From: Escherichia coli
GTDB lineage: Bacteria > Pseudomonadota > Gammaproteobacteria > Enterobacterales > Enterobacteriaceae
Reading direction: 5' to 3' (one strand)
DNA: 64,000 nucleotides
NCBI RefSeq assembly: GCF_003334785.1
Contig: NZ_QOWV01000006.1
In this document: in pieces, positions 12,941 to 46,128 of the stretch
Position numbering within the stretch: the first letter of the stretch is position 1
How the letters are laid out: each line of letters starts with the position of its first letter
Notes under the pieces: model-generated
Database searches by the model: none
Told to the model about the DNA's origin: nothing
The model's input: the letters and a program-made list of their open reading frames with translations, nothing else
Position numbers and translations under genes: made by a program

Positions 12941-13297
12941 TTAACAAAGCCGCTCCAGATCGTGTGCATATAATTCAGCAGCTACCGATTGATAGATCTT
13001 CCAGTCAATAAAATTGCCATCAGGGTAGACTCGTTGAAATGCGGTTAAGTCGGGGAAAAAACGCATGGTGTTGTTGCCGATGCGGTTATTTATTTTCTCT
13101 ATGATGGCATGAAGATGTTTTTTTCTTTGCTGACGCATAGCCAACAGTTGCTCGACTACACGATCAGGAATGGCACACTTGCCATTTTCCCACTGACGCC
13201 AGCTTTCACTGTCACCGGTCTGGGCAATCCAGGTCGCGCATTCATCAATAGTCATGGCAAAAATATGGCGGAGTGCCTGGAGTTCATAAGCGTTCAT
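12941..13297 (-). CDS. ydiL: Small DUF1870-type protein
   Basis: ORF track 127 aa starts at a TTG; trimmed to ATG 13297..13295 (MNAYELQALRH...), 118 aa as I recall for YdiL. Confidence 0.75.
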   Translation of the reverse strand: MNAYELQALRHIFAMTIDECATWIAQTGDSESWRQWENGKCAIPDRVVEQLLAMRQQRKKHLHAIIEKINNRIGNNTMRFFPDLTAFQRVYPDGNFIDWKIYQSVAAELYAHDLERLC

Positions 13298-13434
13298 CGT
13301 GTAATGGCTGCATGAAATAAACAATAAAATATAAATAACATTATCAGCCTGCTGACGGCTTGAAGAGAGTCACAGTATCTTGTGCAACATTATTGGAAAG
13401 AGTGAGGGGCGAGGTAGCGAAGCGGAAAAATGTT

Positions 13435-13540
13435 AAAAAAAAGCCCATCGTGGGAGATGGGCAAAGACTACACACAGCAATTCGTTGTTTCACTCAGGGG
13501 ATTTCCATGCTTATAAATCAATATGTTGATTTATAACCGT
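13435..13540 (-). ncRNA. rprA: RprA small regulatory RNA (Hfq-dependent activator of rpoS translation)
   Basis: Minus-strand sequence ACGGTTATAAATCAACATATTGATTTATAAGCATGGAAATCCCCTGAGTGAAACAACGAATTGCTGTGTGTAGTCTTTGCCCATCTCCCACGATGGGC followed by a T-run; matches my recollection of E. coli RprA, including the terminal GC hairpin (CCCATCTCCCACGATGGG). Confidence 0.9.
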
Positions 13541-13725
13541 GAGCTAATAGTAGGCATACGGACTTTTTGCGTCGATCAGATTCGTCTCATTAGTTTAAAA
13601 ACTGTAAAGAATTTGCGACAGGTACTACCAGCTGAATGGCGGTAAGCAGGAAAATATGGGGAAGAGCAAGCAAATATCAATTAGCGGTGGTTAACAATCA
13701 GGCGGCAGAGCCGCCTGATGAGAAA

Positions 13726-14838
13726 TTACTTATTCGGTTTCTCGATTTCGCCAAGTTCTTCGAGAATTTCTTCCGGTTGGTCCGTCGGCGGCGGGACTTC
13801 TTCCACCCACGCGGCAAACAGACGCCAGGAAACGGCTAACAGAACCGGACCAATAAACAGACCGATCATCCCGAAAGCAATCAAACCACCAATAACGCCA
13901 GAGAGAATCAGGATCAGCGGTAAATCGGCACCCATGCGAATTAACATTGGGCGGATGACGTTATCCAGCGTGCCAACCACACCGCTCCACACTAACAATA
14001 CCGTTCCCCAGGTGGTATCGCCAGTCCAGTAGAGCCAGATAATCGCCGGAATCAGTACCGGCAACGGGCCAAGCTGGACAAGGCAGGAGAGGATCATTAA
14101 CACCGTTAGCAACGTTGCATAAGGTACGCCGGATACGGCGAGGCCGATACCGCCAAGCACTGCCTGTACTAACGCCGTCACCACCACACCCAGCGCCACC
14201 GCGCGGATAGCCTGTGCCGCCAGCAGCACGGCGGCATCTCCGCGAACGCCTGCCAGACGGGTTGCAAAATGGCGAATGCCTTGTGCCACCTGTTCACCGC
14301 GCCAGTACAGCAGGGCACTGAAGAGAAGCATCAGCGCACAATGCACCATAAAGCGCCCGATATGCGCCGCCTGCCCAACGAACCAGGTGGTGGTGGTGCC
14401 AATATAAGGGCGGACTTTCGCCATGATCGCCGTCCCCCCCATATCCAGCAAGTTGTGCCAGCCTGCATACAGCTTCGCGCCAATCACCGGAATGGTATTA
14501 AGCCACGCCAGATCGGGTAACGTCATGTCACCGCTGGAAATGGCTTTAATTAGCGGGCCGCTGCCGTCGACGATACTGTTAACCAGCAAAGCAATAGGGA
14601 TGATAAACACCATCACTAATAACAGCGTCATCACCAGAACGGCGAGAGAGCGGCGGCCAAACATGATCTTTTGCAAACGTAACAATACCGGCCAGGTGGC
14701 GATAACCACCGTACCGGCCCATGCAAAGCCGAGAATAAAGGGTTGAACAATCCACAGACATGCCACAATCATGATGGCTAAAAACAGCACCGAAAGCAGA
14801 ATTTGTGCGACATCCCTGGGCTGACGAACATTTACCAT
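13726..14838 (-). CDS. ydiK: Inner-membrane transporter, AI-2E / UPF0118 family
   Basis: ORF track 370 aa; polytopic membrane protein. Confidence 0.88.
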   Translation of the reverse strand: MVNVRQPRDVAQILLSVLFLAIMIVACLWIVQPFILGFAWAGTVVIATWPVLLRLQKIMFGRRSLAVLVMTLLLVMVFIIPIALLVNSIVDGSGPLIKAISSGDMTLPDLAWLNTIPVIGAKLYAGWHNLLDMGGTAIMAKVRPYIGTTTTWFVGQAAHIGRFMVHCALMLLFSALLYWRGEQVAQGIRHFATRLAGVRGDAAVLLAAQAIRAVALGVVVTALVQAVLGGIGLAVSGVPYATLLTVLMILSCLVQLGPLPVLIPAIIWLYWTGDTTWGTVLLVWSGVVGTLDNVIRPMLIRMGADLPLILILSGVIGGLIAFGMIGLFIGPVLLAVSWRLFAAWVEEVPPPTDQPEEILEELGEIEKPNK

Positions 14839-19131: not shown

Positions 19132-19245
19132 ATTATTCTTATCGCCCCTTCAAGAGCTAAGCCACTGAGAGTGCCGGAGATAAGCGCCGGATGGGGTAGA
19201 AACCCTTAAGCCTGTGTCGCACAGACTTAAGGGTTTTCTTATTTC
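19132..19245 (+). ncRNA. rydB: Candidate RydB sRNA locus with rho-independent terminator hairpin (exact ends uncertain)
   Basis: Intergenic ydiH-sufA position where rydB lies in E. coli; strong hairpin AACCCTTAAG...CTTAAGGGTT (19201..19235) followed by TTTCTTATTTCT on the + strand. The sequence itself was not matched from memory. Confidence 0.35.
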
Positions 19246-36906: not shown

Positions 36907-37212
36907 TCAGGCGAGTTTTGCCTGATTGATTTGACTAAGTGGCTCATTGACATCGAAAACTTTGGCGACAACTTCCTCAACGCCGAGATTTTTCAGTCGG
37001 GCAGTATGTTTTTCCAGATAGGCAAGGGCGCTTTTTTCATCAGTGAAAAGGTAGATCCCACCGGCTTCGTGGTTCTTTTCACTTTCTGTCCATACCTTCC
37101 ACAGAAAACCAGGTTCCTGATTAATCGACTCAGCAAGTGGTTTAAGCTGCTCAGCCATTGCGTCGCCAAATGGGCCATTAAAAGCAAAATGAAGTTGTAA
37201 CAAAGTTGCCAT
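36907..37212 (-). CDS. ydhR: Small protein, putative monooxygenase-like
   Basis: ORF track 101 aa. Confidence 0.85.
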
Positions 37213-37319
37213 AGCGATTCTCCTTCTGATAACGCATACGAAGACAGTGTAAATCTTTTAACGTATTGGATACAGAGAAGAAACAGAGGGAAAAAGGAGA
37301 AGACCAGATTAAGAAAATC

Positions 37320-37396
37320 TGGTGCGTCCGAGTGGACTCGAACCACCGACCCCCACCATGTCAAGGTGGTGCTCTAACCAACTGAGCTACGGACGC
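37320..37396 (-). tRNA. valW: tRNA-Val (anticodon GAC)
   Basis: Reverse complement GCGTCCGTAGCTCAGTTGGTTAGAGCACCACCTTGACATGGTGGGGGTCGGTGGTTCGAGTCCACTCGGACGCACCA; anticodon loop CTTGACA; encoded CCA. Confidence 0.95.
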
Positions 37397-37400
37397 AGGA

Positions 37401-37477
37401 TGGTGCGTTCAATTGGACTCGAACCAACGACCCCCACCATGTCAAGGTGGTGCTCTAACCAACTGAGCTATGAACGC
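37401..37477 (-). tRNA. valV: tRNA-Val (anticodon GAC)
   Basis: Reverse complement GCGTTCATAGCTCAGTTGGTTAGAGCACCACCTTGACATGGTGGGGGTCGTTGGTTCGAGTCCAATTGAACGCACCA; a near-duplicate of valW with compensatory acceptor/T-stem changes. Confidence 0.95.
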
Positions 37478-46068: not shown

Positions 46069-46112
46069 TCCATTTCACTCCAGACCCTAACTTCAGCTCC
46101 TGCAAAATCGCA

Positions 46113-46128
46113 AGGTAAACGTTTGCCT
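46113..46128. promoter_or_regulatory. PurR operator in the purR 5' leader (autoregulation)
   Basis: Minus strand AGGCAAACGTTTACCT, 45-60 nt upstream of the purR ATG. Confidence 0.7.

Follow-up and report, generated by a model that had tools for sequence, protein, structure and literature searches.

An intact rprA small RNA gene between ydiK and ydiL on an Escherichia coli contig

Identification of the rprA gene

The window, that is, the whole 64,000-nt stretch of E. coli DNA analysed here, contains the gene of the small RNA RprA. Mapping of the RefSeq annotation places ydiK upstream and ydiL downstream of it, the location that the original prediction had given from the sequence. A 67-aa open reading frame (ORF) lies nearby on the opposite strand. 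These features are:

12941..13297, minus strand: ydiL, the downstream neighbour (RefSeq annotation mapped to the window)
13433..13540, minus strand: rprA, gene of the RprA sRNA, with the transcription start at 13540 and the 3' end in the U-run at ~13435 (full-length RF00034 match and identity to K-12 rprA)
13636..13839, plus strand: 67-aa ORF, a shadow of the ydiK 3' end and presumed terminator, outside rprA (ORF list; unannotated in RefSeq)
13726..14838, minus strand: ydiK, coding for an AI-2E family transporter, the conserved upstream neighbour (ORF list and RefSeq annotation)

The whole window was scanned with Rfam 15 at curated thresholds, which yielded six matches. One of them is the RprA covariance model RF00034, aligned to 13540->13433 on the minus strand with a score of 118.5 bits against a gathering score of 70 (E = 1.6e-16). 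The alignment covers model positions 1-108 of 108 and is not truncated. The minus-strand sequence of 13433..13540 is ACGGUUAUAAAUCAACAUAUUGAUUUAUAAGCAUGGAAAUCCCCUGAGUGAAACAACGAAUUGCUGUGUGUAGUCUUUGCCCAUCUCCCACGAUGGGCUUUUUUUUAA, and the K-12 MG1655 feature 'rprA: antisense sRNA RprA' maps exactly onto window positions 13540..13433. A 501-nt query (13300..13800) aligned with 100% identity to many complete E. coli genomes, K-12 MG1655 included, and the only RefSeq features under the match were rprA and 'ydiK: AI-2E family transporter YdiK'. Of 5426 complete E. coli genomes, 5424 contain the 108-nt RNA, with at least 99% identity in 5422 records. The gene is thus intact and canonical, given its 108-nt identity to K-12 and its presence in nearly every E. 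coli genome of that set.

The interval 13433..13540 is almost certainly the chromosomal rprA gene, coding for the ~105-nt Hfq-associated trans-acting sRNA RprA with the mechanism described in the literature. As judged from its sequence it belongs to RF00034 and is indeed the type gene of that family, and all of the sequence-level defining features that were tested were found in it; nothing in the sequence counts against this identity. Compared with RprA of K-12 (RF00034; rprA in the ydiK-ydiL gap), the window copy is alike in sequence (108 of 108 nt), length, structure and terminator, and also in its RcsB-box promoter, gene neighbourhood and complementarity to rpoS and csgD. No difference was seen; this is the same gene.

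The full RprA sequence that had been recognised by eye on the minus strand is therefore borne out by the full-length 118.5-bit RF00034 match together with the K-12 identity; the covariance-model search that had been named as the check matched the interval full length and well above threshold. The predicted coordinates, 13435..13540, hold apart from two A residues that follow the U-run and belong to the annotated feature 13433..13540. An end at 13435 agrees with the size of 105-106 nt given in the literature. As had been anticipated, rprA is an RNA gene that an ORF track cannot show, and it is present and intact. The finding is correct, already known and ordinary. For the window, its value is that an RNA gene unseen by ORF calling has been shown to be present and intact and that a shadow ORF has been set aside, which makes the annotation useful and not new.

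Structure and sequence covariation of the RNA

The minimum-free-energy fold of the RNA comprises a 5' hairpin (nt 5-15 with nt 20-30), a long and mostly unpaired middle, the terminator hairpin and U8. The structural elements and the conserved seed map to the window as follows:

13511..13536, minus strand: 5' stem-loop of RprA, nt 5-15 / nt 20-30 (fold and covariation in 118 sequences)
13469..13509, minus strand: single-stranded middle, nt 32-72, complementary to rpoS leader positions -135..-93
13460..13482, minus strand: conserved seed AAUUGCUGUGUGUAGUCUUUGCC, nt 59-81, directly 5' of the terminator, complementary to csgD 5'UTR site I
13435..13462, minus strand: Rho-independent terminator, hairpin GCCCAUC-UCCCAC-GAUGGGC (13462..13443) followed by U8 (13442..13435)

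A terminator scan of 13200..14000 returned one site, GCCCATCTCCCACGATGGGC followed by TTTTTTTT, at 13462..13443 on the minus strand. The hairpin pairs nt 79-85 with nt 92-98 through 7 pairs, 5 of which are G-C, and T8 comes after it in the DNA, in agreement with the GC-rich hairpin and T-run that had been described at the end of the gene. The z-score of the whole-RNA fold was only -1.99. Modest z-scores are usual for an sRNA that has a long single-stranded region.

Homologous loci were collected by scanning one genome per species (GTDB representatives) for an exact match to the 23-mer of nt 59-81, which gave at least 120 loci; the exact seed 23-mer is thus present in at least 120 Enterobacterales genomes. 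The loci span Escherichia, Citrobacter, Salmonella, Enterobacter, Klebsiella, Pantoea, Erwinia, Serratia, Yersinia, Dickeya, Pectobacterium, Hafnia, Providencia and others. The 118 distinct Enterobacterales sequences were aligned with MAFFT, without fitting of the alignment to any structure. The invariance of nt 59-81 in this alignment arises by construction, because the loci were chosen by exact match to these nucleotides.

Across the 118 sequences the two hairpins were 87.3% paired, as compared with 28-47% when the 3' partners were slid by 1-3 columns. The Rfam consensus structure on the same MAFFT alignment gave a slightly lower value, 84.7% paired. Changes on both sides of a pair occurred in 12 of the 18 pairs of the two hairpins, and at every pair in the outer helices of the 5' stem-loop. 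In the terminator hairpin 99.5% of the cells were paired, with compensatory changes at 3 of the 7 pairs. Cells with both-side changes numbered 75, as against 32.9 +/- 4.2 in column shuffles, and none of 500 shuffles reached 75.

Promoter and gene neighbourhood

Two promoter elements were located upstream of position 13540:

13547..13575, minus strand: weak sigma-70 core promoter with -35 TCGACG (13575..13570), a 17-nt spacer and -10 TACTAT (13552..13547), read by eye
13576..13589, minus strand: RcsB box TGAGACGAATCTGA at -49..-36, which fits TN(G/A)GAN4TC(T/C)NA and adjoins the -35 element

The RcsB-box consensus TN(G/A)GAN4TC(T/C)NA was defined in the study in which RcsB was crystallised with Salmonella PrprA (-53..-33) (PMC7913699). 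With 13540 taken as +1, the corresponding stretch 13593..13573 is CTAATGAGACGAATCTGATCG and agrees with the crystallised Salmonella PrprA at 20 of 21 positions. A match to the box stands at the equivalent distance in 114 of the 117 loci listed that have enough upstream sequence; the count in control windows was 5 of 5428 (0.09%). The core promoter scores 4/6 + 4/6 (8/12), and the consensus scan, which needs 9, left it unflagged. Weak core elements are expected, because the promoter strictly requires the activator RcsB (PMC6298664). The -10 region is conserved in the MAFFT alignment. Judged by these motifs, rprA has its own promoter, with a predicted RcsB box beside the -35 element, and transcription of rprA from its own promoter in an RcsB-dependent manner has been reported (PMC6298664). 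Two promoter calls made by the consensus scan at 13680..13651 lie upstream of the rprA promoter and were set aside, being without support.

All three genes are on the same strand. The start of rprA is 186 nt past the ydiK stop codon and its end is 135 nt ahead of the ydiL start. A ydiK homologue adjoins it upstream on the same strand in 109 of the 120 loci listed; in nine of the other 11 loci the upstream sequence is shorter than 400 nt, and the remaining two are second copies. Such an arrangement would suit a conserved sequence that belongs to one of the neighbouring genes, as a 3'UTR or terminator element in the case of ydiK or as a 5' leader in the case of ydiL, and is not an independent gene. 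This explanation is, however, highly improbable. The conserved RcsB box and -10 element lie directly upstream of the RNA 5' end (114 of 117 loci listed), rprA is reported to have an RcsB-dependent promoter of its own (PMC6298664), and the strong U8 terminator stands between rprA and ydiL. Moreover, ydiL is missing downstream in most species that keep the RNA, with its presence seen in only 8 of the 120 loci listed, and ydiK has a stem-loop of its own (~13695..13725) ahead of the rprA promoter. The sequence is thus better described as the independent gene rprA.

The ydiK stem-loop, CAGGCGGC-UCU-GCCGCCUG, is encoded on the minus strand right behind the stop codon of ydiK and presumably acts as the terminator of that gene. 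It lacks a clear T-run, the terminator scan did not flag it, and it falls within the 67-aa ORF of the opposite strand. The adjacency of rprA and ydiL was seen only in Escherichia, Citrobacter and close relatives. In E. coli SCPM-O-B-8794 (L040 1468-1600), ydiK (99% identity) is followed by a near-identical rprA, the sequence diverges right after the terminator, and no ydiL homologue occurs within 1.5 kb downstream of rprA. The rprA-ydiL junction is thus variable even inside Escherichia.

Small open reading frames

The ORF list holds three small ORFs, which exist mechanically: a 49-aa GTG ORF at 13344..13493 (minus strand), a 58-aa ORF at 13360..13536 (plus strand) and the 67-aa ORF at 13636..13839 (plus strand). 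That the interval codes for a small protein through any of the three is nonetheless scarcely credible, since RefSeq annotates none of the three in E. coli genomes and the conservation pattern of the RNA is one of paired covariation without codon periodicity.

The 67-aa ORF is antisense to the last 38 codons of ydiK over 114 of its 204 nt (13726..13839), and its remainder runs across the ydiK stem-loop and the distal part of the ydiK-rprA spacer. A tblastn search with the 67-aa peptide, in which stops were counted, found no full-length stop-free counterpart among the 120 loci listed, and the similarity was confined to the stretch that mirrors ydiK. In E. albertii the peptide has 58% identity over 50 aa, as compared with 98% for YdiK. 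A test of conservation by the longest antisense ORF at the equivalent interval was rejected because it picked other ydiK shadow ORFs.

The original prediction that the 67-aa ORF is probably spurious holds: the ORF is an antisense shadow of the ydiK 3' end. The overlap with the rprA promoter region that had also been proposed for it is not borne out: its start at 13636 corresponds to -96 from the rprA start at 13540, which is 47 nt beyond the RcsB box (13589..13576) and upstream of the -35/-10 elements. At most, the ORF reaches into the distal portion of those promoter fragments that have served for reporter fusions.

Target complementarity and proposed function

RprA is a 105-nt sRNA that activates rpoS by an anti-antisense mechanism (PMC3465796). 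RprA nt 31-78 was compared with sliding 45-nt windows along the K-12 rpoS leader. The best site was -135..-93, which pairs with RprA nt 32-72 at -32.4 kcal/mol, and 2 of 200 shuffles were as good. A duplex calculated by RNAduplex between full-length RprA and the 281-nt rpoS leader (-57.3 kcal/mol, 3 of 200 shuffles as good) contained huge interior loops and was discarded as unrealistic.

In csgD, site I has been located at -119..-84 and the corresponding anti-site I at RprA nt 60-97; the processed RprA60-105, which spans the most conserved region, is enough for csgD repression (PMC3465796). RprA nt 62-74 and csgD -98..-86 form a 13-nt perfect Watson-Crick match inside this published site I. 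The seed duplex has an energy of -25.4 kcal/mol, and none of 500 shuffles was as good.

Identity, structure, promoter motif, synteny and the rpoS and csgD complementarity are established for the window copy. By analogy with published work on the identical K-12 gene, the same expression, Hfq involvement, RcsB dependence and regulatory outcomes would be expected. RcsB, the response regulator of envelope stress, would bind the box at -49..-36, whereupon the weak promoter would fire from 13540 on the minus strand and transcription would stop at the Rho-independent terminator 13462..13435. The rpoS 5' leader contains an inhibitory hairpin, with whose upstream arm the middle of RprA would then pair, freeing the ribosome-binding site and turning translation on. 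Pairing of nt 59-81 with the csgD and ydaM (dgcM) mRNAs would lead to less synthesis of curli and biofilm matrix. Through RprA, envelope stress sensed by the Rcs phosphorelay is linked with RpoS, the sigma factor of the general stress response, and with the control of curli and biofilm.

The other two sRNA activators of rpoS that depend on Hfq, DsrA and ArcZ, resemble RprA in mechanism, as both base-pair with the upstream arm of the hairpin in the rpoS leader and thereby open the ribosome-binding site (PMC3465796, PMC4152358). However, their sequences and promoters are unrelated to those of RprA, as are their inputs (low temperature for DsrA and ArcAB for ArcZ). In the Rfam scan neither the DsrA nor the ArcZ family matched 13433..13540.

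The RprA seed on phages and other mobile elements

While the uniqueness of the sequence was being checked, the 3' half of RprA was also found away from ydiK. A P1-like phage-plasmid of E. coli CH468 (L123 2501-2548) carries RprA nt 60-107 with 95.8% identity; this copy is unannotated and lies near pacase, Lpa and tRNA genes. RprA is matched in 17 GenBank phage records. The match covers nt 59/61-104 in the Escherichia phages vB_EcoM-606R2, 689R2 and 611R5 and in the Erwinia N4-like phages Ea9-2, Tellus, Frozen, Rexella and Gutmeister, and nt 60-85 in the Escherichia phages LLS, Eeyore and Flotzy; in four records (three Salmonella phages) only the terminator region, nt 76-107, is matched. The phage loci extracted are L124 1501-1546, L125 1501-1544 and L126 1501-1526. 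Carriers of the seed comprise temperate E. coli phages (LLS, vB_EcoM-606R2) and lytic Erwinia phages of the N4-like group (Ea9-2, Frozen).

The exact 22-mer of nt 60-81, ATTGCTGTGTGTAGTCTTTGCC, occurs in at least 120 IMG/VR viral contigs (L127-L246), the scan being one by exact match, which cannot tell how far the seed is conserved within phage families. By our own estimate a chance 22-mer should be met much less than once in such a collection. The contigs listed represent 91 distinct contexts, in every one of which the seed is followed directly by a hairpin with a T-rich tail. The hairpins of the contigs listed have 37 different sequences, and the 5' parts fall into at least 8 unrelated groups. 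None of the 120 IMG/VR contigs listed has a ydiK homologue. The idea that the phage copies are flanks of the host rprA caught up in prophage predictions was rejected on this count of 0 of 120 and on 5' parts that are unrelated to RprA.

The phage copies look like sRNAs that reuse the RprA seed. It is conceivable, although we hold it only tentatively, that a much wider set of mobile-element sRNAs, in which its seed stands directly before a terminator hairpin on at least 8 unrelated bodies, has its chromosomal archetype in rprA. If these RNAs are expressed, phages would, by copying the RprA seed, act on RprA targets of the host, csgD and dgcM (curli and biofilm) among them, without Rcs signalling. 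They would then form a broad case of phage sRNAs that mimic the seed of a core-genome sRNA, which is the sole item of this analysis with discovery potential. No account of phage copies of the RprA seed turned up in the literature outside subscription-only papers, and the observation of the seed and terminator on phages may be new.

One viral contig (L133 8201-8401) has the RprA seed and terminator on a body that scores as STnc100 (RF02076, 48.9 bits), and the RprA model stays below its threshold there with 54.5 bits. The contig seems to carry a chimeric or modular sRNA in which a prophage scaffold bears a core-genome seed. The likeness between RprA and the prophage STnc100 / PasD sRNAs (RF02076; bioRxiv 10.64898/2026.05.13.724894) runs via this viral contig and is a side observation alone. 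The RprA of the window has no STnc100-like body, and the STnc100 consensus differs in sequence where RprA has its seed. The preprint on the prophage Pas/STnc100 sRNAs does not mention RprA (bioRxiv 10.64898/2026.05.13.724894).

Second chromosomal copies of the RprA 3' part were seen in Phytobacter massiliensis (L049 1160-1292) and in a Citrobacter metagenome-assembled genome (L095 6575-6707). Both copies have an unrelated 5' part, with no ydiK and no RcsB box at the usual distance, and each of the two genomes also has a normal rprA (L048 and L096, respectively). The Citrobacter copy resembles one of the viral groups (...CATGCGGGAAAGACCGCAA...).

Other RNA matches in the window

The gene of the rydB sRNA lies at 19144..19204 on the plus strand, with a full-length match of 81.6 bits against a threshold of 50, and is another RNA gene that the ORF track would miss. 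Two tRNA genes occupy 37323..37477 on the minus strand. A match to the HPnc0260 'antisense RNA' family at 37196..37358 on the plus strand scored 112 bits, and its well-aligned 3' part is the reverse complement of one of these tRNAs. This match probably does not represent a true member of the family, which is one of Helicobacter, and is probably an artefact of tRNA-antisense sequence in the Rfam model. STnc550 was matched full length at 46069..46459 on the plus strand, with 396.5 bits. This stretch contains the 29-codon cydH (ynhF), coding for the cytochrome bd-I accessory subunit, and the STnc550 'sRNA' family thus overlaps the mRNA of a small protein.
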